Translations under genes and position numbers: made by a program
The notes under the pieces: model-generated
Seen by the model: the letters and a program-made list of their open reading frames with translations, nothing else
Told to the model about the DNA's origin: nothing
Databases searched by the model: none
Assembly (NCBI GenBank): GCA_905235485.1
Contig: CAJOLY010000001.1
Span: forward strand, 1 to 44,261
Source of the DNA: an uncultured Clostridia bacterium
Lineage (GTDB): Bacteria; Bacillota; Clostridia; Christensenellales; UBA1242
Reading direction: 5' to 3'
Length of the DNA: 44,261 nucleotides
In this document: one piece after another, positions 26,415 through 43,920 of the stretch
How positions within the stretch are numbered: the first letter of the stretch is position 1
Layout of the letters: every line of letters begins with the position of its first letter

Positions 26415-26499
26415 GGGTAGATGCCTGAGCGGCCAAAAGGAGCAGACTGTAAATCTGTCGGCGATGCCTACGGTGGTTCGAATCCATCTCTACCCACCA
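26415..26499 (+). tRNA. tRNA-Tyr(GTA), integration target
   Basis: 85 nt with long variable arm, CT-GTA-AA loop, CCA end. Confidence 0.95.
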
Positions 26500-26537
26500 A
26501 GTGTTGAAGTGAATTTTCACATCAGCACTTTTTTATT
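26482..26537 (+). repeat. attL, 56-bp direct repeat (tRNA-Tyr 3' end plus operon terminator)
   Basis: ATCCATCTCTACCCACCAAGTGTTGAAGTGAATTTTCACATCAGCACTTTTTTATT, identical at 43367-43422. Confidence 0.95.
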
Positions 26538-26698: not shown

Positions 26699-27883
26699 CT
26701 ATTTTTTGATATTATTTATAATATCAACAAACTTATTATTTGTTTCTTTATTTAAATGAGTATAAATTTTTGTTGTGATAACACTTCCTTTTTCGTGGCC
26801 AACCCAACTTTGAACAACATATAGTGGGATATTGTTTTCTTGGCATCTTGTTATAAAAGTATGTCTTAAGTTATGTGTAGTAATTTTTCTTATGTTGCTT
26901 TCCTGAATAATTGTTTTGAGTTGCCTATCAACAGTGTTAATTCCAATATCAAATATATAATCATTATTTTTTTTGTTTTTGATCGATTCTTTTAAAACTT
27001 TTATTGATTTTTCAAACAGTGGCATTATTCTATTGCTTTGTGAATTTTTTGTGTCAGTTCTTTCTGTGTGAGGATTTAAACTTTCATCTACAGTTAAAGT
27101 TTTATTTTCAAAATCAATGTCTTTAACTTGTAAAGCTCTGCATTCTCCTTTTCGTAGTCCTTGATATAAGCAGATTAAGAAGAAGTTTCCATATTTGTTG
27201 TTTTTGCAAACTTCAATAAATTGTTGTTCTTCATAATTTGTCAATGCAATATTTTCTTTTGCTTTGTAAATTGGTTTTTCAACAAGTTTCATTATGTTTG
27301 TGTCAACAAGTTTGTTTAATAGTGCTTTTTCATACAGTGCATTGAGCAGAGTATAAGTCCTTAATCTTGAACTGTTTCCTGAAATATTATTTATAAGGTG
27401 TTGAACTTCAAATTGATTGATTTTTTTGATTGGTTTATTATAAAGTGATTGAGCATTTTTAAAATCAATATTCGTTGCTCTTATAGTTGTATCTTTAACA
27501 TTTTTTGATTTATACAAAGTTATAAACTTGTCAAACCATTCTTTGAGTGTTATATCACTTGATATTGAGTTGATATCTTCATTTTTAATTTTTTTGTATT
27601 TTTGAATAACATCTTTTTGTGTTTTTCCGTAAACTGTAATTTGTCGGCCATTTTTATAAAATCTAATTTGCCAACAATTTCTGTTTGGTGTTTTTGTAAT
27701 TTGTTTTCCATCGTATGTCAAAATTTCAATCTCCTTTGGTTTTAGATTTTCATTTTGACTTTGTGTATTATTTGAATTAAATTCTTTTTCGAATGTTTGA
27801 TTTGGTTGACCTTCCATAAGTCCTGCTAGAAATAGTGCTTCAATTTCAGCAAGCTGACATATTTCTTTTCCAAGTTCAAACAA
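26699..27883 (-). CDS. int: Tyrosine integrase (true start possibly ATG 27942 via a -1 frameshift)
   Basis: GLRKGE, HNLRHTF, VGH, TTKIYTH catalytic motifs; arm-binding-like N-terminus; adjacent to attL. Confidence 0.93.
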   Translation of the reverse strand: MFELGKEICQLAEIEALFLAGLMEGQPNQTFEKEFNSNNTQSQNENLKPKEIEILTYDGKQITKTPNRNCWQIRFYKNGRQITVYGKTQKDVIQKYKKIKNEDINSISSDITLKEWFDKFITLYKSKNVKDTTIRATNIDFKNAQSLYNKPIKKINQFEVQHLINNISGNSSRLRTYTLLNALYEKALLNKLVDTNIMKLVEKPIYKAKENIALTNYEEQQFIEVCKNNKYGNFFLICLYQGLRKGECRALQVKDIDFENKTLTVDESLNPHTERTDTKNSQSNRIMPLFEKSIKVLKESIKNKKNNDYIFDIGINTVDRQLKTIIQESNIRKITTHNLRHTFITRCQENNIPLYVVQSWVGHEKGSVITTKIYTHLNKETNNKFVDIINNIKK

Positions 27884-27949: not shown

Positions 27950-28756
27950 TTATTTTCTCCTTTTAATAAATTGACCTAATTTTCTTGGCATAATATCATT
28001 TATTCTTTTTATATCGTCCATTGTTAAATCAATTCTATTGTATTTGTTTTCATCATATAATTTAATTTTTGTCTCTTTTCTGTTATTATATTTTTCATTA
28101 TCTTCAATTCCCCAAAATTCAATATAAACATCTCCTTCTGGTAAATAAAAATCTGATAGTACAACAGCATTTGGTTCTGTGTCCATATAAACTGATTTTT
28201 CGTATGCATGAACATAATTGTTTCTGTATAGCCAATCATCGATTATTTTTTCTGCTTCAGATCTAACATAGTGTCCATCATCACATTGATGTTCTCTTGG
28301 CCATTTATTTCTAAAATCTTCATCATTAAATTTTTGACTTGTTTCAATATTTTTACTATTTTTCATTATTTCTAAAATATCTTTATTTGCGATTTTTGTT
28401 AAGTAGTCATCATCATAGATATTTTGGAATTCTTCAGATAAAGCAAACATAATGGAAATGTTATCTTTAATTTCTTCTAAATTGTTAGATTTCTTTGTAA
28501 GTTGTTTTAATTCAAAATAATGGTCTCTAATATTGTTTTCATTTCTATTGTGGTCAAAATTTTGTCTAATTGGTTTTATTTTATTTCTATAACAATCTAA
28601 ACAAAATAAATAATTATTATCTGTTTCTTCTTCACAAAGAATACACTTTTCATTTTTTATTTCGTTAGCATTATCATCTTTATTCTCATTTTCTATTTCT
28701 GTATTTTTATTGTTGTTATAATAATTTTTTTTATATCTATAATTCCAATATCCCAT
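27950..28756 (-). CDS. Zn-finger plus PD-(D/E)xK-like nuclease-fold protein
   Basis: CILC...CLDC; VRSEAEKIIDDWL...YEK...SDFYLP...YIEFWG; AAGGAG RBS. Confidence 0.6.
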   Translation of the reverse strand: MGYWNYRYKKNYYNNNKNTEIENENKDDNANEIKNEKCILCEEETDNNYLFCLDCYRNKIKPIRQNFDHNRNENNIRDHYFELKQLTKKSNNLEEIKDNISIMFALSEEFQNIYDDDYLTKIANKDILEIMKNSKNIETSQKFNDEDFRNKWPREHQCDDGHYVRSEAEKIIDDWLYRNNYVHAYEKSVYMDTEPNAVVLSDFYLPEGDVYIEFWGIEDNEKYNNRKETKIKLYDENKYNRIDLTMDDIKRINDIMPRKLGQFIKRRK

Positions 28757-28769
28757 ATATATTTCTCCT

Positions 28770-29084
28770 TTATTGTGCTAGAAGTAGTCCATCGCAGACA
28801 CTATCTAATTTGATTAAATTGCTATTGTTTAACAATGGCAATTTTTTTATTAGTTCTTTTGCAATAGATGAATAATAACTTATATCAATTTCATTTCTTT
28901 GATGATTGCATAAATAATCTAGCGATACATTATAGTAATCAGCAATTTGGCATAGAGTTTTAATATCTGGTTCACTTAATTTTTGTTCGTATGATGCATA
29001 AGTTGTTCTAGCAATATTTAAATATTTTGCTATTTCATTTTGCGTTGTTTTATTCTGTTTTCTCAGTTCAATTAGTTTTTCCAT
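28770..29084 (-). CDS. XRE/cI-like HTH repressor
   Basis: LIELRKQ..TQNEIAKYLNIARTTYASYE...IADYYNVSLDYL. Confidence 0.9.
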   Translation of the reverse strand: MEKLIELRKQNKTTQNEIAKYLNIARTTYASYEQKLSEPDIKTLCQIADYYNVSLDYLCNHQRNEIDISYYSSIAKELIKKLPLLNNSNLIKLDSVCDGLLLAQ

Positions 29085-30577: not shown

Positions 30578-31756
30578 ATGAACAAAGCATTAAAAATTAG
30601 TTTGATAACAATTATATCAATACTTATGGTTTTCAGTTTGCTTTCAATGGGATTATATTATTATCTCCCAGCTGTTGAGAGAAATGAAACATTTGCATTA
30701 TCAACTGACACAAATGGAAATCCATACATTGATGTCGAATATTGGTCAAACAAAGAAAATAACGGTGTTGAACTGTTAGACATTAGATTACATGGTTATG
30801 CAACAGCAGAAGATTTTGAAAAAGATGAACCAGTTACATATTATAAAGGTATTCAATTTGTTGGAGATAAACATGGTTCAATTGTTTTTGACTTTGACAC
30901 AGTATGGTCAATTAGTAATCCCTTTGGAGTAATATTTTCATCTTCGAATTATAAAACAGCTGCATATAAATCAAATGTAAAGGCATATTACTATGACTCA
31001 CAAAACAATATCAATTTTAAATCATTCAATGAATTAACAGATGAATATCGTTTTAAAGTTTCTGTTGAAAGTGGAGAAAATACAGGTTTGTATTTCTTAA
31101 AACTGTTGGGACAAAAAGTTGATTCAAGTGATACTTTTCTTTGGCATACTGATTATTATTGCACAAATTTTGATTTGATGTATTTATCAAACAAAATACT
31201 TGAAACAGCAAGAGCAAACAGTGAAGGAAATGATTACACAGGAACACTTTCTATTGATGTAGGCACAATGTTTGATTATATGAAATATTCAGAACATGCT
31301 AGTGAACAAAAATGGGCCTCAACAATAAACAAAGAAACAGGAAAGGTTGAAACTTTCTTGCAAGAGTTTGCACTTGTTAATTTCACAGTTCATAGTGATG
31401 GTGCAAAATTTGCTAGTGATAGTATGTTTGGAATTATTGCTGATAGTTCAGATTTTGAATATGTTAATCCAGATATTAAAAACACATATCTTTTGGGAAA
31501 ACAAGTTGTTGAACTTACTGAAAAGAATTTCACAATAGCTGAAACAAAACTTGACTTTACAAACAGAACTAAAACATTTTTAGATAATAACAATTTGAAT
31601 ATATCAATCTTGATTGATTTAGACAGTTTGAATATGCAAGACATTGAATATAACGGATTTTCTGAAACTGTTAAGACATATTCAAAAAGAATAACATCAA
31701 TCACATTAAAGCAAACAGTGAATGGCACAACAATATATAGTGAGGTGGAACTATGA
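30578..31756 (+). CDS. N-terminally anchored membrane protein (candidate structural protein)
   Basis: Basic N-terminus plus one TM helix, then a beta-rich-looking ectodomain; AAGGA RBS. Confidence 0.75.
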   Translation: MNKALKISLITIISILMVFSLLSMGLYYYLPAVERNETFALSTDTNGNPYIDVEYWSNKENNGVELLDIRLHGYATAEDFEKDEPVTYYKGIQFVGDKHGSIVFDFDTVWSISNPFGVIFSSSNYKTAAYKSNVKAYYYDSQNNINFKSFNELTDEYRFKVSVESGENTGLYFLKLLGQKVDSSDTFLWHTDYYCTNFDLMYLSNKILETARANSEGNDYTGTLSIDVGTMFDYMKYSEHASEQKWASTINKETGKVETFLQEFALVNFTVHSDGAKFASDSMFGIIADSSDFEYVNPDIKNTYLLGKQVVELTEKNFTIAETKLDFTNRTKTFLDNNNLNISILIDLDSLNMQDIEYNGFSETVKTYSKRITSITLKQTVNGTTIYSEVEL

Positions 31757-32412
31757 CAGAACTTTTAGGAATATTTGGAGATACAGTTTCAACACTTAAA
31801 ACAATAATAGCTTTGATGGTTGTTATTGGAATAATATTTCTTTTGATATATATCAAAGAAATGCGACCTGTTATATTGGTCATTCTAGGTGTTGTTATTC
31901 TTGCAGGTGGAATTGGTGCAACAGTGCAAAATGTGAAGTATTTCAATGCTAGCAACAAAACAATTGGAGAAGTTTTGAACAGTACACTTCACACAACACA
32001 TTTTGTTAAGCAAAATGAAAATGTTTTTGAACTTAACACATTAGGATTTAAACAAGTTGATGAAAACACATACATCACAGAATATCAAATTGCACAAGTT
32101 ACAAATCTTGATCTGAAAAATCAAAAATATACATTAAAAGTCAATGATTATAGATGTTTTTCAAATGTGCAAGACGGACAAAACAATTCAATGGAATCAA
32201 AGTTTACATACACATTCTATGACAATGACAAAGAAGAAATTTTGACAGATACATTAAGTATAACATTTGTGTTCAATGAAAAATCAACAACAATACTTCT
32301 TCAAACAAAAGGTGGAGAACAAGCAAAGGAATTATGGAAAGCATTTGAAAGAAAGAATGGAATGAATATCACATTTGATAACTCAACAATAGATGAAATA
32401 TATTTAGGATAA
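31753..32412 (+). CDS. Two-TM membrane protein (candidate structural/matrix protein)
   Basis: Two N-terminal hydrophobic helices; ATGA overlap with the upstream gene; GAGGTG RBS. Confidence 0.75.
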   Translation: MTELLGIFGDTVSTLKTIIALMVVIGIIFLLIYIKEMRPVILVILGVVILAGGIGATVQNVKYFNASNKTIGEVLNSTLHTTHFVKQNENVFELNTLGFKQVDENTYITEYQIAQVTNLDLKNQKYTLKVNDYRCFSNVQDGQNNSMESKFTYTFYDNDKEEILTDTLSITFVFNEKSTTILLQTKGGEQAKELWKAFERKNGMNITFDNSTIDEIYLG

Positions 32413-33435: not shown

Positions 33436-36249
33436 ATGGTAGTATTTAGAGCAATTTATAAAACGCTTGTGGCCTTAATTATAGTGGCAGTAATAGCTGC
33501 TGGAACTATCTTGGCTGTGCCACAATGGAGAGATCCAGCAATAGATTGGGTCGCAGAGCATTCAAAGTTATATCAAACAACAGTTGATAGTAACGATGAA
33601 TTAACAGAAGAAACTATAGCTCAATCAGAAGAGATTGAGATATTAACAGGAGAAAAAGCTGATTTAATAGCACAGTTAATTTTAGCAAATGATGACAAAG
33701 AATATATACAAGCATTGTATGATTTGCTAGCTAGTGAAAGAGCAGCAAAGGCACAACTTCAAGCAAGGCTTGAGGCTGAGATTGCTGAAAAAGAAAGTTT
33801 GCAAGAACAATTAGATTCAGCAAACACAAATATCGAAGTTGCAAGAGCTGTGCTTGATGAAAAAAATGCAAGTATTTCATTATTGCAATCAGAAATTGCG
33901 GAAAAGAATGCAACAATAGAAAGTTTAAATTCTAGTCTTGCAAGTAAAACTGCAGAGGCAGAGGAATATAAACAACAAGTTATTGCATTAGGTGGCGAAC
34001 TTGAAACATTGCAATCATTTAAATATGGTAAGTATGTTTGGAGTGAGGAAGTGCCAGATGGCACATTTGAAGATGTGTTTGTTGAAGTACAGAACAACGG
34101 AAAAGTTAAATTTTATTTCGATAGTGAAAATTTTGCGTTGTTTGATTATGTACAAAATGAAAACAGAATTACAGTAAATTTTGTTGAAGATAACGAAGTA
34201 CATCCAATTGAATTTGTATTGACAAGTAATGCAAGCTTTGAGAGTACTGACGAAGATACCCCAATGTCATTTGTATATTGTGATGAAACACTTGAAAGTG
34301 TACTTGAATCAAGACAAATATTGCAAGAAGAATTAAGAGGTGTTGAAAGTGATAAATCAGTTCTTGAATTAGAAGTTGAAAGTTTAAATTCTCAAGTTAC
34401 ATCACTTAATAGTCAATTAAGTGAAATTACTACTCAAAGAGATTCTTTGCAATCTGAATTAGCAACTGCAAATTCAAATATTTCAAGTCTTAATCAAGAA
34501 TTGTCTGTTGCAAATTCTAGCATTCAGACATTAACACAACAAGTTAATACTTTAAATACTGACAAAATTGCATTAACAAATTTAATTAGCACTTTAGAAG
34601 GCGAAAAATTAGGGCTAGAAACAAGGATATCAGAACTTGAATCTGAACTTGAAACGTTTGAACAATACACGTTAAGTATTGACCAAACAAACCCTGTTGA
34701 AACAATTATTATTACTGATAGCAAACTTAACACAGTTGCTTCTGTACAAGATGTGTCAATATCTCAAATTACATTGTATACTTGGCAAACTATTATTGTT
34801 AAGTATGCTAGCCAAAATAACAAAAACATTGTTGCAATGTTAAATGGAGTTAGTACTGGTTCTAACACTGTAACAATAAGTGGCGAAGGTAAACATACTT
34901 ATAGTATTACAAGTTTTGACGAGTATTTAAGTGATTTTAAATCAGATATTTCAAACGCTGGTGAAATTACGTTAACACACAATGTTGTGTTAGATACTGA
35001 AATTGAAATTACTGAAGATACAACTATTGATTTGAATGGTCACGCAATATACGGTGCAAATATCAATGGTGCAGTATTCAAAGTTATGCCGGGTGTAACA
35101 TTAACACTTTATGGTGATGGTAGTGTTGTTGGCGGTAGTGGTGCAGATTGTAGAGCTGTAGAAGTACAAGGTACACTTAATGTTTATGATGGTAATTATT
35201 TTGTAGGACCGGATGCTGACGGTTATGGTAATTCAACAATATATGCTTCAGCAAATAATGCAGTTGTAAATATTTATGGCGGACATTTTGAGTCCGCGGC
35301 TGCTTGGAATAACTTTTATTATGTACTTAATGTTAAAAATTCAGTTAATGCAACAGTTAATGTTTATGGTGGTGAGTTTGTAAATTACGACCCATCAGTT
35401 GGCGATGATAATCTAGGTGGTAATTTTGTTGCTGAAGGTTATGAAGTTATCCAAGATGGTGACTGTTATATTGTTGAAGAAATATATACAGAAATACAAA
35501 CAGTGTTAGAAGATGGAATATATCATATAAAAAATATTCCACAGGGTTCAGCAGATTTAAAAGATATAGTTTTTACAATCGAAAATGGCGAAATTAGTGA
35601 ATACAAATATGAGCTTGGAATATGGTTATCTGACAGTTCAATAGAAACTTTTACTCAGACAAGGGATGAAAACCTTATTGAGGTAACGTACACTGGTCAT
35701 GGTATTTTAAAAGGTAATTTTCACGTTGATATAATTGATGAAACTACATTTAATGCCTTTGGCTTTACATTTGCTTTAGATGGAACAGAAAAAGCAACAT
35801 CAATACTAGCATATTCATTTGGTAATGGATGGGTAGATTTATTTGAGGACGGAACGGGTGTTATTAGTTTTTCTGAAACAAACCTTTTTGGCTCATTTAA
35901 ATACACAATAGATGAAAATAACAGAATTGATGCTGTTTCTATTGATGGAAGTGAATTTACGTGCGTTTTGGATGCAGATTATGAATATGCTTCGTTTCTT
36001 GGTGTAAGATTCGGCAGAATATCGGAAAGTGCAATAGCAAGCCCAAGTGAACGAGCAGGTTTATATGTAAATAGCCAAGGAAACGGTGGTTTAGTTATCT
36101 ATTTAGATGGTAGTATTGGTATGTATGGTATGAGAAAATTTACAGCTGAAGAGATACCATATATTCAATGGGTGAACTATTTAACATTTGAATTTGATGG
36201 AAATTATTTTGTTAAATACAATGTATTTACACAACAAGTGTACCAATAA
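33436..36249 (+). CDS. Large membrane-anchored coiled-coil protein with beta-helix-like and beta-rich head domains (spike/adhesin candidate)
   Basis: N-terminal TM; two heptad coiled coils; TIDLNGH..VNIYGGHF..VNVYGGEF repeats; GAGGAG RBS. Confidence 0.8.
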   Translation: MVVFRAIYKTLVALIIVAVIAAGTILAVPQWRDPAIDWVAEHSKLYQTTVDSNDELTEETIAQSEEIEILTGEKADLIAQLILANDDKEYIQALYDLLASERAAKAQLQARLEAEIAEKESLQEQLDSANTNIEVARAVLDEKNASISLLQSEIAEKNATIESLNSSLASKTAEAEEYKQQVIALGGELETLQSFKYGKYVWSEEVPDGTFEDVFVEVQNNGKVKFYFDSENFALFDYVQNENRITVNFVEDNEVHPIEFVLTSNASFESTDEDTPMSFVYCDETLESVLESRQILQEELRGVESDKSVLELEVESLNSQVTSLNSQLSEITTQRDSLQSELATANSNISSLNQELSVANSSIQTLTQQVNTLNTDKIALTNLISTLEGEKLGLETRISELESELETFEQYTLSIDQTNPVETIIITDSKLNTVASVQDVSISQITLYTWQTIIVKYASQNNKNIVAMLNGVSTGSNTVTISGEGKHTYSITSFDEYLSDFKSDISNAGEITLTHNVVLDTEIEITEDTTIDLNGHAIYGANINGAVFKVMPGVTLTLYGDGSVVGGSGADCRAVEVQGTLNVYDGNYFVGPDADGYGNSTIYASANNAVVNIYGGHFESAAAWNNFYYVLNVKNSVNATVNVYGGEFVNYDPSVGDDNLGGNFVAEGYEVIQDGDCYIVEEIYTEIQTVLEDGIYHIKNIPQGSADLKDIVFTIENGEISEYKYELGIWLSDSSIETFTQTRDENLIEVTYTGHGILKGNFHVDIIDETTFNAFGFTFALDGTEKATSILAYSFGNGWVDLFEDGTGVISFSETNLFGSFKYTIDENNRIDAVSIDGSEFTCVLDADYEYASFLGVRFGRISESAIASPSERAGLYVNSQGNGGLVIYLDGSIGMYGMRKFTAEEIPYIQWVNYLTFEFDGNYFVKYNVFTQQVYQ

Positions 36250-36318: not shown

Positions 36319-38235
36319 ATGTCAAAATGGTTAAAAATTACAATTGCAATAATATTAACAGTTGCAATTTTAGGAATGTCAATTTGGTTCATTTTCTTCA
36401 GTGGAATTTTAGATAAAACAAAGAAGTATTCATATCAAGATATTCAAGATATGTATGATGCAGGTTTTGTTGATGGTTCAAAAAGGGTAACGGATTTGCA
36501 ATTGCAAATTGATGAGTTAAATGGTCAAATTGAATTAAATTACAATAGAATTACTGAGTTGCAAGATTTAGCAAGATCCTTATCAAGTGAAAATTCTAGA
36601 ATTCCAGGTCTTGAAACTGAAATTGAAAATTTGAGAGTTGAAAAAGCTGAGTTATTAGATCTTGTTAATAGATTACAAGCTGAGTTGGAAATATATTGTA
36701 ATGATTTACCAAATAGAGTTATTGTAACATTTTATAAAGATAATAATGTATATAAAGAGTTATCAATAAGAGAAAATGGCAGTGTTTTAGTTGAAGTTCC
36801 TACTCCAATAAAAGATGGATATCTGTTTAATGGTTGGTCCTTAAATAATGAAATAATTGATATTACAACATATTCTTTTACTCAAGATGAAAGACTTGAT
36901 GCTGTTTTTGTTATAGATGATACATTATCAAATATTTTATCTAATTTAAATCATGAAAATTATTTGCATTTTAAATTGTTAGATAATAGTATTGAAAGTT
37001 ATTTTTACTTTACAAATGATAATTTAGGGTTTTATTGTAACGGATATTTCTTTGATAATATAATATTCTTAAATAATAATAGTTTTATTGGAAATTGTGT
37101 GATAAATAATGATATTTTCGAATGTCATGGCAATTACAATAGAGAGAATAAGCAATTGCAAATTACACTTAATGATATAGATTATAATTACTATTATATT
37201 GGTATTGTTGAAGATATGCATGATGATTATTTAAGATATTTAACTGTTGAGCCATCGAGTTATTTAAGCAATATGATATTGCTTTCATATGATAATAATA
37301 ATTATTTCGGATATGAATATAAACCTTTTATAAGTTATTCTTTTGAAGATATTGATGTAAACGAAGTTAAAAAAATAATATTTACTCAAGGTGTTAAGTA
37401 TGTTTCAGTTGATTTTCTTGATAATTTTGTAAATTTGACAGAGATTGATTTTTATGGAACAGCAATGCAGTGGTTTGGTCAGCATACTTTAACGGGTAGA
37501 GAATTGATTGATAATTTTAAAATCAATAAGGACACATCATACATTGTGAATTGCATCGATGGATTATATGAAATAAACAATGAAAATAAAGTTATATTAA
37601 AATTTTATGCACCAGGTAAATTGGAAGGTTACAGTAATATAACATTTGAAAATTTACTATATTATGTTGGAATAATTGATAAGAATAATTTGTATTTAGA
37701 TGAAGTTAATGCTCCAAATAAACAAGGATATAATTTTGTTGGATGGAGTGATGGCCAGAATATTATTGATTTTTACACATATAGTTTTGATTCAAGTACA
37801 AATTTATATGCAGAATATGAACAAATACCAATGCCTGATGGAAAATATAGAATTAGTTGTGAAGAAGTTATAGAATATGGTGAAAATTCTTCAAGACTAA
37901 CAGGAAATGTAACTTTTATCGTTGAAAATGGCCAATATTCAATTGATAGTAGTGCAAATAATTATGTTGTAGTTGAAACTTTGTCAGGTAGAGGAATTTA
38001 TGTTGAGGGTACATATTCAAATTGTCGTTTTCAAATAAATTCAATAAATCAAGTTTCAAATTCATTAAGTATTAGTGCATCAGAAGTTGGTTTTAGCATT
38101 CAATTTTGTTATTGCACAGATGAAAGTACATTAAATACACGATATTTTAATGTTTCAAATAAAATTACAGACAATTGGTATTATACAAACATTTCTCATT
38201 CAAATGTAAATTTGGAAGTAATTGATTTGTATTAA
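36319..38235 (+). CDS. Membrane-anchored coiled-coil protein with two InlB-B (Flg_new) repeats (spike/adhesin candidate)
   Basis: N-terminal TM; coiled coil; PTPIKDGYLFNGWS and APNKQGYNFVGWS repeats. Confidence 0.8.
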   Translation: MSKWLKITIAIILTVAILGMSIWFIFFSGILDKTKKYSYQDIQDMYDAGFVDGSKRVTDLQLQIDELNGQIELNYNRITELQDLARSLSSENSRIPGLETEIENLRVEKAELLDLVNRLQAELEIYCNDLPNRVIVTFYKDNNVYKELSIRENGSVLVEVPTPIKDGYLFNGWSLNNEIIDITTYSFTQDERLDAVFVIDDTLSNILSNLNHENYLHFKLLDNSIESYFYFTNDNLGFYCNGYFFDNIIFLNNNSFIGNCVINNDIFECHGNYNRENKQLQITLNDIDYNYYYIGIVEDMHDDYLRYLTVEPSSYLSNMILLSYDNNNYFGYEYKPFISYSFEDIDVNEVKKIIFTQGVKYVSVDFLDNFVNLTEIDFYGTAMQWFGQHTLTGRELIDNFKINKDTSYIVNCIDGLYEINNENKVILKFYAPGKLEGYSNITFENLLYYVGIIDKNNLYLDEVNAPNKQGYNFVGWSDGQNIIDFYTYSFDSSTNLYAEYEQIPMPDGKYRISCEEVIEYGENSSRLTGNVTFIVENGQYSIDSSANNYVVVETLSGRGIYVEGTYSNCRFQINSINQVSNSLSISASEVGFSIQFCYCTDESTLNTRYFNVSNKITDNWYYTNISHSNVNLEVIDLY

Positions 38236-38350: not shown

Positions 38351-38650
38351 ATGGCAAAGAAGAATACTTGGGGAACAAAGGTAACAACACAAAAAGGTAA
38401 AAAAATTACACTTTTAAATCCACAAGAGAAAAGACAAAAATTTTTTCAGGAAAGATTGACAAATACTCATTTGACAAATGATATGATTTGCAAAACAGAC
38501 AAAGCAGGTAATTGTAAACCATTGACTGATACTGAAGCTGCATATAGAAGTGGATATGAAAGAGCAATTAAAGATCAAAACAGATTATATAGAGCAAAGC
38601 ATCCAAAATATGTATCAAAGTATCCTGAAAATATCAAAGCAAAAAACTAA
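38351..38650 (+). CDS. Basic hypothetical protein
   Basis: AAGGAG RBS; Lys/Arg-rich 99 aa. Confidence 0.75.
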   Translation: MAKKNTWGTKVTTQKGKKITLLNPQEKRQKFFQERLTNTHLTNDMICKTDKAGNCKPLTDTEAAYRSGYERAIKDQNRLYRAKHPKYVSKYPENIKAKN

Positions 38651-39902: not shown

Positions 39903-40760
39903 ATGGCAACATCACATATATTTTTTGGAGAACAGAGAAGTGGAAAGACATTATATTTAGCATATCTTGCAAATATACAAGCATATGATCCTGTTAAACT
40001 TTCGGCTTGCTATAATAAAATAGATATGCTTAATTCAATGGGATACAACTTGTCAAAACCAAAACATATAACATTTACTGATTTTGATTTAGAAATACAT
40101 TCATATAGAAAAGCTGTTGAAATGAATTATTGGATAGATGGATTTTATTTAGGATTGCCGCATTATGTTGTAAAGAATAAAAAACTTACATATAGAACAA
40201 TGTTTTTGCCTCCAAATATAAACATTTATTTAGATGAAGGCAACAAATATTTTGATAGTAGAAATCGAGATATTATGCCAGATTATCGTAAAAGATGGAA
40301 TGAACTTCTGGGCCAGTGGGGAACAGAACTGTATATGGTATGTCATAGACCAATGCTTGTAGACTCTTGCATAAGAGATTTATCGGACTTCAGAGAGTTT
40401 TTAAAAACTGACTTAGATTATGACTATTTTGGCAATATTAGCAAAGCAATAATTCATACAAGGTATTATCCTACAAGTAAAGATGCAATGGCTTATATAG
40501 ACAATGGAATAATCACTGAAAATGTAACTGAGGAAGATATAGTTATTGATTGTACAAGGCCATTTCTTAATGTTCCCAAGTATTATGATACACATTTTTA
40601 TGATAAAGCCTTTTTGCGTTTTGCAGAAGATCGAGATTTTGATCTTATACAAAAAAAGCACATTTGTAACTCAGTTGAAGATGTACAAGCATTTAATAAA
40701 AGATTTCATTATACAGTACCTCAAGGGTTATACGAAAAAGGAGTTGAAGATGACAGATAA
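39903..40760 (+). CDS. Zot/pI-like (FtsK-HerA clade) ATPase without TM segment
   Basis: Walker A GEQRSGKT at the extreme N-terminus, Walker B IYLDEG, MVCHRP, VDSCIR. Confidence 0.8.
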   Translation: MATSHIFFGEQRSGKTLYLAYLANIQAYDPVKLSACYNKIDMLNSMGYNLSKPKHITFTDFDLEIHSYRKAVEMNYWIDGFYLGLPHYVVKNKKLTYRTMFLPPNINIYLDEGNKYFDSRNRDIMPDYRKRWNELLGQWGTELYMVCHRPMLVDSCIRDLSDFREFLKTDLDYDYFGNISKAIIHTRYYPTSKDAMAYIDNGIITENVTEEDIVIDCTRPFLNVPKYYDTHFYDKAFLRFAEDRDFDLIQKKHICNSVEDVQAFNKRFHYTVPQGLYEKGVEDDR

Positions 40761-41491: not shown

Positions 41492-42532
41492 ATGTCTTGG
41501 ATCGGTATAAAACAACGTAATCCACAAAGAAAATTTGTAGCTATGAAGTTAAGAACAGCTATGGATGATTTATTGAACCAAGATATTAAAGGTTTAGATA
41601 GAATTGATAAAATTTATCACAAAGTTGATGGTTGTATGAGTTATGTTAATATGCAGAAATGTATCCAGTGTGGTATGTTACATTTTAATAAATCAAATTA
41701 TTGTGAAAGTAAACTTTGTCCTATATGTGCTTATTTAAGAGCTAGAAAATATTTATCAGTTCTAGTACCAAGATTTAGAAATATGCTTGAAAGAGGATAT
41801 AAAATAAACTTTTTAACTTTGACAATAAAAGATACAGCAGTTTTGAAATATGGATTGGACATTGTTAAAAAAGCCTGGAGATACATGACAAATAGAGATC
41901 CATTTTCAAAATATATTTTCAAAAATATGTTTATTGGTGGAATCTATGCTATAGAAATTAAAAAAGGAAAGAATTCAAAACTCTGGCATCCACATGTTCA
42001 TTTGTTAGTAGTCAAAGACCATTTTTCAAAAGATTTTGATGTTATCAAAGGATTATGGGAAATGGCATGTCAAAAAGTTGCAAACACAACAGAAAAGATA
42101 TCATCAGTAGATATTCGAGGTGTTCATGACAAAAATGGCAAATTAACAAAGAATATAAACAGTGAAGATACAATAACAAGTGCAGTAGTTGAATGTGTTA
42201 AGTATGTAACAAAATTTTCATTTGATGATTATTCATCAATGGATTTGCTTGAATTATGTAATTGCTTATATAACAATAGATTATTTTCAACATTTGGATG
42301 TATGAGAAACAGTGAAGATGAAGATCTTGATGAAGATTACAAAGACGTAGTAGAGGAATTAGTTTGTACAAAATGTGGCAGTAGAGATTTTGAAGATGAA
42401 GTTACATCAATAGATAAAGCAATGAATATGAACGTAGTCGATTTTGGAAAAAGACATTATGTTTCAAAGAAAGAACAAATTGCAGGATTAACAGCAATTA
42501 TGGAAGTAATGCTTAGGAGAGAATATGAATAA
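41492..42532 (+). CDS. rep: HUH rolling-circle replication initiator (Rep_1/pC194-like)
   Basis: Motif I FLTLT, motif II WHPHVHLLV, motif III ECVKYVTK, N-terminal Cys cluster ..CESKLCPIC. Confidence 0.93.
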   Translation: MSWIGIKQRNPQRKFVAMKLRTAMDDLLNQDIKGLDRIDKIYHKVDGCMSYVNMQKCIQCGMLHFNKSNYCESKLCPICAYLRARKYLSVLVPRFRNMLERGYKINFLTLTIKDTAVLKYGLDIVKKAWRYMTNRDPFSKYIFKNMFIGGIYAIEIKKGKNSKLWHPHVHLLVVKDHFSKDFDVIKGLWEMACQKVANTTEKISSVDIRGVHDKNGKLTKNINSEDTITSAVVECVKYVTKFSFDDYSSMDLLELCNCLYNNRLFSTFGCMRNSEDEDLDEDYKDVVEELVCTKCGSRDFEDEVTSIDKAMNMNVVDFGKRHYVSKKEQIAGLTAIMEVMLRREYE

Positions 42533-43366: not shown

Positions 43367-43422
43367 ATCCATCTCTACCCACCAAGTGTTGAAGTGAATT
43401 TTCACATCAGCACTTTTTTATT
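43367..43422 (+). repeat. attR, 56-bp direct repeat
   Basis: Identical to 26482-26537. Confidence 0.95.
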
Positions 43423-43493: not shown

Positions 43494-43706
43494 CTAATAT
43501 TCTTTTCTGCCTGCTAAATAGTCAAGAGAGACATCAAAAAAATCAGCAAGCAAAATTGCATTTGATAATACCGGTTCACTTTTTCCTGTTTCCCAATCAC
43601 TAATAGATGCCTTACCTACTTTTACTAAATCAGCTAATTGTCTTTGATTTAAATTTTTTTCAAGCCTTAATTCTTTTAATTTTTCACCAAATATGTTTTT
43701 TCGCAT
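43494..43706 (-). CDS. XRE-family HTH regulator (70 aa)
   Basis: MRKNIFGEKLKELRLEK..LADFFDVSLDYLAG. Confidence 0.85.
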   Translation of the reverse strand: MRKNIFGEKLKELRLEKNLNQRQLADLVKVGKASISDWETGKSEPVLSNAILLADFFDVSLDYLAGRKEY

Positions 43707-43707
43707 A

Positions 43708-43920
43708 TCAATAATCCTTAAGTCCTGCAAGGTAATCAATGCTTACATCAAAAAATTTTGCTATGGCAACTAAGCTAGGTAAAGTAGGTTGATATATTCC
43801 CGTTTCCCAACCACTTATGATTGATTTTCCATAACCAATACTATCTGCCAATTGTTTTTGAGATAATCCATTTTCTAATCTTAATTCTTTTAATCTTTTT
43901 CCAAATATGTTTTTTGTCAT
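43708..43920 (-). CDS. XRE-family HTH regulator (70 aa), paralogue of the adjacent gene
   Basis: MTKNIFGKRLKELRLEN..IAKFFDVSIDYLAG. Confidence 0.85.
   Translation of the reverse strand: MTKNIFGKRLKELRLENGLSQKQLADSIGYGKSIISGWETGIYQPTLPSLVAIAKFFDVSIDYLAGLKDY

Follow-up and report, generated by a model that had tools for sequence, protein, structure and literature searches.

Among the prokaryotic DNA viruses that bud as enveloped particles, the hosts named in the literature cited here are either wall-less Acholeplasma or archaea. One of these, plasmavirus L2 (Acholeplasma virus L2), is a temperate element of about 12 kb that integrates at tRNA genes and has no capsid, its virion being enveloped and formed by budding (PMC12662186). 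For the Pleolipoviridae (Pleomoviria), published accounts describe a block of membrane proteins plus an ATPase, with replication genes that are freely swapped (PMC10599561, PMC13595969). On the filamentous side stand the Tubulavirales/Efunaviria, i.e., the Inoviridae and Plectroviridae: a hydrophobic helical major coat protein is given as a realm hallmark (PMC13595969), and a pI ATPase, small transmembrane (TM) genes and gene order are features used in inovirus detection (PMC6813254).

The locus described here lies in a window, the whole stretch of 44,261 nt that was analyzed, from an uncultured Clostridia bacterium of the Christensenellales, and centers on two adjacent genes, A and B, carried on an integrated element; in sister elements, their slot may be taken by either of two other proteins, F and G. 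As in the Plasmaviridae, these elements insert at tRNA genes by means of an integrase and are of similar size (median 13 kb against about 12 kb). The membrane proteins of L2 (L13696) include an Ig-repeat envelope protein, and L2 ORF3 (L105:2278-3216), annotated as unknown, has Walker A/B motifs that align in register with the Zot-like ATPase family found here. Unlike L2, whose host Acholeplasma is wall-less, the element here resides in a host with peptidoglycan genes, many of its relatives have rolling-circle (RCR) Reps, and A, B and F are without detectable homology to the L2 membrane proteins (hhalign at most 1.6%, a profile being compared with one or two sequences). A block of membrane proteins with an ATPase and freely swapped replication genes is likewise shared with the Pleolipoviridae; in contrast to those viruses of archaea, the homologous records here are named Christensenellales or Clostridia, A is N-anchored, and A, B, F and the ATPase show no homology to HRPV-1 VP3, VP4, ORF6, ORF7 and VP8 (hhalign at most 1.9%). 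With the Tubulavirales, the elements have in common a pI/Zot-type ATPase, mosaic Reps and integrases, tandem integrated copies and, in some relatives, a similar gene order; they differ in that a helical major coat protein was found neither in the window copy nor universally in the relatives, and in the anchoring of the ATPase described below. By gene logic, the element would work in the manner of L2 or a pleolipovirus.

The closest ATPase in GenBank is that of bajarodino virus 12 (PQ006185), a circular 9.8-kb record filed as Inovirus, under whose name no literature was found. It shares with the window element the ATPase family (profile E 6e-62), an integrase, a repressor and an N-anchored Ig-domain protein, but has F in place of A+B, and it may be misfiled as Inovirus. 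No description of the A/B element family was found in the literature searched, chiefly the main texts of openly available papers; some members may figure in the Roux 2019 inovirus catalogue.

Genes A and B and the element that carries them

A and B lie on the forward strand and overlap by 4 nt (ATGA). The sequence-only reading had described them as a 392-aa one-TM and a 219-aa two-TM protein so joined, and the ORF coordinates, hydropathy and AlphaFold2 models all bear this out: hydropathy places one TM segment at about residues 4-22 of A and a pair at about 16-34 and 40-58 of B, in agreement with modeled helices at 3-33 of A and at 11-33 and 35-65 of B. Neither protein has a meaningful family match in Pfam, PHROGs or NCBIfam; sequence-profile searches of the PDB with A, B and F gave nothing significant, the ESM Atlas gave no usable match for the queried proteins, tblastn of A against phage records returned only noise (E~6), and no match was confirmed when IMG/VR and the JGI metagenomes were scanned with patterns of A or B. 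With the conservation described below, A and B are a real, conserved and previously unannotated protein family, A being a candidate membrane-inserting or fusion protein and B its candidate partner.

The two genes sit in a 16.9-kb att-bounded element inserted at tRNA-Tyr (Table 1). Between its integrase and repressor (27950-28756) lies a 268-aa protein with an N-terminal Cys cluster, common to three other elements and without a family match. Just beyond attR (43494-43920) are two tandem XRE HTH genes containing a 79-nt repeat that is 78% identical between them, possibly the remains of another element. A search of sequencing runs found one with a full match, which may be the sample of origin, and two with small shares, with no RNA run among the matches listed.

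Table 1. Features of the integrated element (window positions)
Feature	Position	Strand	Description
attL	26482..26537	+	56-nt exact repeat overlapping 3' end of tRNA-Tyr (26415-26499)
Tyrosine integrase	26699..27883	-	PF00589 E 3e-26, phrog_1
XRE/HTH_3 repressor	28770..29084	-	Domain match
Protein A	30578..31756	+	392 aa; beta-rich ectodomain on an N-terminal TM anchor; two hairpins with aromatic tips (residues about 104-132, 178-198)
Protein B	31753..32412	+	219 aa; two N-terminal TM helices, ~130-aa alpha/beta domain
S1	33436..36249	+	937 aa; N-terminal TM, long coiled coil, variable C-terminal domains; candidate receptor-binding spike
S2	36319..38235	+	638 aa; N-terminal TM, coiled coil, Listeria-Bacteroides (InlB B-type) repeats; PF09479 E 1e-10
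c8-family basic protein	38351..38650	+	99 aa; conserved; family net charge +9 to +19; candidate nucleoprotein
Zot/pI-type ATPase	39903..40760	+	No TM; family profile vs PDB 2r2a, SpV1 ORF2
Rolling-circle Rep (Rep_1)	41492..42532	+	PF01446 E 3e-24
attR	43367..43422	+	16,885 nt from attL

The 0.98-Mb host genome has four Mur-ligase matches, PBPs, FtsW and MraY, and Mur-ligase matches occur in 120 of 121 genomes of the host family. Thus, the host is walled, and a wall-less host, which had been considered, is ruled out. One genome of the family (G056), listed as 100% complete, has no Mur-ligase match and may be wall-less.

The ATPase family profile matches PDB 2r2a, the Neisseria Zot domain, at E 4e-12, and plectrovirus SpV1 ORF2 at hhalign 96% over 216 columns; its relatives match PF05707 near the cut-off. 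Against plasmavirus L2 ORF3, the same comparison gives 19-33% (not significant), and against the HRPV-1 ATPase 1-2%. Among 63 loci, the ATPase is TM-less in 44 and mostly has an N-terminal TM in 16, the other 3 being cut by contig or region ends; the two forms are homologous (hhalign 97%). The Reps of relatives are of the Rep_1, Viral_Rep plus helicase, or REP_ORF2-G2P types, and 13 of 28 complete A+B elements lack any of four rolling-circle Rep clusters, the window being scored from its own Pfam Rep_1 match. Some of these carry HTH_36, DUF6291, Lin1244_N or DnaC-like proteins instead, presumably theta-type dsDNA initiators, which, if so, would fit poorly with extrusion of ssDNA.

Conservation, mobility and exchange of the A+B slot

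Within the host family, 88 of 401 genomes match the B profile. The A profile gathers 350 clusters at 50% identity; across the order, it matches 7 of 301 genomes, two of these marginally, and among 351 genomes across the phylum only the window's own. A set of 63 B-selected loci was assembled from 20-kb regions for 60 B matches (long contigs being preferred), two for genome G048 and the window, with two pairs representing the same element. A lies directly upstream of B in all 63; 55 of the 61 distinct A genes overlap B and 5 are at a distance of 1 nt, a coupling that is not due to chance, the remaining gene being without a detected B. Both genes are under purifying selection in the three close pairs from which selection was read (dN/dS of 0.015/0.27, 0.031/0.57 and 0.10/1.66 for A, and 0.017/0.59, 0.002/0.44 and 0.078/1.63 for B), two distant pairs being saturated. 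C-terminal extensions, some with adhesin domains, occur in 30 of 60 distinct B homologues, the named domains among 77 scanned B and S proteins being InlB B-repeats, BspA LRRs, DUF285 and DUF6273.

The 28 complete att-bounded A+B elements span 8.6-18.5 kb, and lie mostly at tRNA genes; integrases are of the Tyr or Ser type. Over its whole length, contig L082 is a circular permutation, joined across att, of a 94-96% identical integrated element, and two loci show head-to-tail copies of whole elements (L004/L005 on G048:C2 and L047/L048 on G375:C7, with periods of 8,562 and 16,589 nt), which may be assemblies of circles; together, these indicate that relatives excise. Some elements also bear cargo, e.g., an ADP-ribosyltransferase-domain protein or DUF4417 (L091:1589-2107, L078:1180-1839).

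A second set was selected by the ATPase, namely the 80 best of 183 genome matches and two viral ones, minus one without a called ATPase (n=81). A+B fill the slot in 32 of these loci, B is seen at a contig end in 1, F is present in 21, and 27 have neither; 12 of the 27 have less than 6 kb upstream and 10 carry G. Of the 33 loci with A or B, 32 hold both, the exception (B) stopping at the contig end, and none of the 81 has two slot types—A+B, F and G are mutually exclusive. The sequence-only reading implied that the pair should be present in related Rep/ATPase elements, and this holds in part: A+B are missing from 48 of the 81 ATPase-selected loci, often with F or G there instead.

A FastTree of 104 ATPases requires at least 16 switches of slot type, compared with a minimum of 2 and a mean of 34 after shuffling; there are supported mixed clades, one of which (0.91) unites the window and an F element. 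The tree shows mosaicism, in which either part may have moved. The one-for-one replacement of A+B by F or G suggests a single essential function, and we infer that at least three modules for fusion or entry, A+B among them, can stand in for one another.

F combines a signal/TM and an ectodomain with a C-terminal TM and an amphipathic tail; a single query detected it in 13 of 201 genomes of the family, and its homologues number at least 1,796. It occupies the A+B slot of sister elements (L104:8035-9660, L116-L127, L142, L203), including those of bajarodino virus 12 and of the cultured strains Pumilibacter muris CLA-AA-M08 and P. intestinalis CLA-AA-M10 (L142, L203). G, of about 690 aa, has two N-terminal TM segments and a conserved W/F-rich loop and no NCBIfam match; it occurs at L136:6011-8089 and in L139, L140, L151, L168, L185, L194 and L207, and the copies in L135 and L200 are split or partial. 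At L179:431-2539 and L192:5775-8867, the same ATPase is adjoined by other large proteins with a C-terminal anchor, possibly additional entry modules. No mutual homology of A, F and G is detectable: A-F homology is doubtful (hhalign 7-12%), G as an A-B fusion was rejected since only its TM part resembles B, and F as a homologue of L2 ORF1, plausible by eye, is unsupported (blastp E 0.027; hhalign 0.6-1.6%).

Predicted structures and the proposed entry role

The AlphaFold2 model of A (mean pLDDT 89, pTM 0.69) comprises a TM helix and a body rich in beta structure, with a small alpha/beta domain at the C-terminus, and that of B (pLDDT 82, pTM 0.59) a helical hairpin and a small alpha/beta domain. 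A fold search with the whole-chain models gave best Z scores of 4.4 for A and 5.5 for B, weak matches that prove neither a different nor a new fold; Foldseek returned no match at E of 0.001 or below for A in the PDB, nor for A and B in BFVD. Pleolipovirus VP3/VP4, the archaea-specific VP4/VP5 fusion and matrix proteins, known fusogens and VirB8 were not among the matches listed in fold and sequence comparisons, which a remote likeness could escape.

The two hairpins of A are highly variable in length, with tips rich in Trp, Phe, Leu and Gly. The most interface-seeking 6-mer of the ectodomain on the Wimley-White scale falls within them in 42 of 69 A homologues (11.3 expected) and in 107 of 142 (27.6 expected), the regions having been picked after a first alignment was viewed and the homologues being related; a control loop was best in 1 of 142. 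Trp makes up 3.2% of the hairpins and 0.3% of the remainder. A strong tip is borne by either one of the hairpins in 44 of 69 homologues and by both in 9, i.e., usually by one of the two. These hairpins appear to resemble fusion loops. Prediction of an A-B complex scored 0.38 against 0.00 for the best control. Of the reference pairs, 116 of 157 solved ones and 2 of 215 mismatched ones attain this mark, but only 18 of the solved pairs, and both mismatches, do so at 0.60 or below (contacts shared between runs, 30% or more; partner pLDDT, 65 or higher). The prediction weakly supports binding.

The adhesin domains fused to the C-terminus of B would place that terminus outside the cell. Of the envelope/matrix, fusion or extrusion-pore roles that had been proposed for the pair, envelope and fusion gain from its conserved, entry- or envelope-like membrane core and the fusion-loop-like hairpins; the matrix role is unsupported, as basic N-tails and the adhesin domains on B lead one to predict the bulk of both proteins outside.

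The coat-protein question and the form of the particle

The sequence-only reading had found no pVIII-type coat protein, and for this copy that observation holds. None of the 220 ORFs of at least 20 aa in the att-bounded element is a credible 30-90-aa one-TM coat gene; its short hydrophobic ORFs are antisense or inside larger genes, and its only sense-strand TM proteins preceded by a ribosome site are A, B and the 937-aa and 638-aa proteins. Under stricter filters, which admitted sense-strand ORFs of 28-100 aa with an SD-like site and a KD of at least 1.9 outside large genes, the count for the window was 0, and profiles of the relatives' small TM families gave no credible match there, the best (E 0.004) lying in an alternative frame inside the integrase. 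Beyond the window, the absence extends only to a universal family: 22 of the 28 complete A+B elements have a small one-TM ORF, as do 6 of the 9 complete F elements, and its usual place is often immediately before A. Nine of 37 (6 of 28 and 3 of 9, including the window) have none, two of them bearing 103- and 130-aa one-TM ORFs just above the size limit. A conserved hydrophobic protein of 52-86 aa, s57, occurs in 18 of 63 loci; s66 (10 of 63) and s67 (5 of 63) are mutually homologous (hhalign 92%), and the other small TM ORFs are singletons. In s57 (e.g., L053:11842-12003), a TM is joined to a Trp-rich amphipathic helix that looks by eye like the amphipathic tail of F (hhalign 6%); s57 may thus far be taken either for a coat protein or for a part resembling a matrix.

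We give about even chances to the proposal that the virus is enveloped and plasmavirus-like, that it uses a filamentous-phage ATPase and that A+B are its entry (fusion) module. The element would be a temperate, non-lytic virus of small-genome Christensenellales that excises as a circle, as seen in a relative, with the pI-type ATPase probably powering genome export at the membrane and the basic c8 protein perhaps coating the DNA. The translationally coupled, N-anchored A and B, for which coupling and co-inheritance are observed and a complex is weakly predicted, would make up the entry module: A would put its two aromatic hairpin tips into the target membrane, and B would partner A, often displaying an adhesin, as the S proteins reach for a receptor. 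With no universal coat gene, the particle would most likely be a lipid-enveloped vesicle comparable to those of plasmavirus L2 and the pleolipoviruses. Several observations weaken this proposal. The host is walled and no wall hydrolase was detected in the window proteins or in 176 (99+77) scanned proteins of relatives—99 of 106 cluster representatives, the remaining 7 being covered in the 77-protein B/S set—leaving passage of a vesicle through the wall without an explanation; the ATPase is nearer to plectrovirus pI than to its L2 or HRPV-1 counterparts; the small one-TM ORFs of the 22 relatives often stand in an inovirus-like order; and A is anchored N-terminally, unlike the known fusogens.

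The main rival explanation, which we hold to be unlikely if well short of negligible, is a divergent filamentous or rod-shaped phage of the Tubulavirales. A and B would then be minor, pIII/pVI-like tip proteins serving entry and release. The major coat, a small protein with one TM such as s57 or s66/s67, would either have been lost from this copy, leaving it defective or helper-dependent, or have been missed by the filters. The pI-type ATPase is present, extrusion accounts for exit through the wall, and s57, s66 and s67 recur at the frequencies given above. Many relatives are ordered small gene, small TM, small TM, A, B, S, ATPase, Rep, which resembles the inovirus order V-VII-IX-VIII-III-VI-I; F has the signal, ectodomain and C-terminal TM layout of pIII, and an F-type relative is filed in GenBank as Inovirus. 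However, the small TM proteins form no universal family, and the complete elements without any under the filters keep A and B intact; in addition, the 13 of 28 without known RCR Rep clusters, and the 8.6-18.5-kb size with several large N-anchored coiled-coil proteins, argue against a filament.

Decidedly less probable would be a contact-dependent mobile element without free virions, in which A+B and the S stalks bridge or fuse neighboring cells as the ATPase pumps the excised DNA. The long adhesin-tipped stalks, the fusion-loop-like hairpins, the walled host, the very free exchange of Rep genes and the failure to see A or B in the IMG/VR pattern scans are in keeping with it, but the ATPase is of a virus-morphogenesis type, F-type relatives are small circular records in virus collections, and no relaxase, VirB4, VirB6 or coupling-protein match was found with Pfam and NCBIfam in the window proteins and scanned relatives, from which remote homologues could escape. 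That A and B are accessory surface proteins for lysogenic conversion or superinfection exclusion, unrelated to transmission, is very improbable: the adhesin domains of B and S do resemble host surface proteins, but A and B keep one position, are strictly coupled and are replaced one for one by F or G, all of which points to a function that is essential. Under the enveloped, filament and contact-transfer explanations alike, A+B would be an entry module.

The broadest form of the enveloped-virus proposal—that widespread, undescribed enveloped viruses of walled gut Firmicutes combine a filamentous-phage extrusion ATPase and a lipid envelope with three unrelated, swapped entry machines, A+B being a two-subunit N-anchored fusogen of new fold—is advanced more tentatively, at somewhat less than even chances. 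Since cultured Pumilibacter strains carry F-type sister elements, the shape of the particle is directly testable. Were it to prove a filament, the family would still yield new entry proteins with natural module swaps. If the enveloped proposal is true, a new fusogen fold would be gained, and a Zot/pI gene alone would not make an inovirus, which matters as such genomes have been filed as Inoviridae on that marker; moreover, with about one in five genomes of a walled gut family carrying such a virus, the question would arise of how vesicles cross peptidoglycan.
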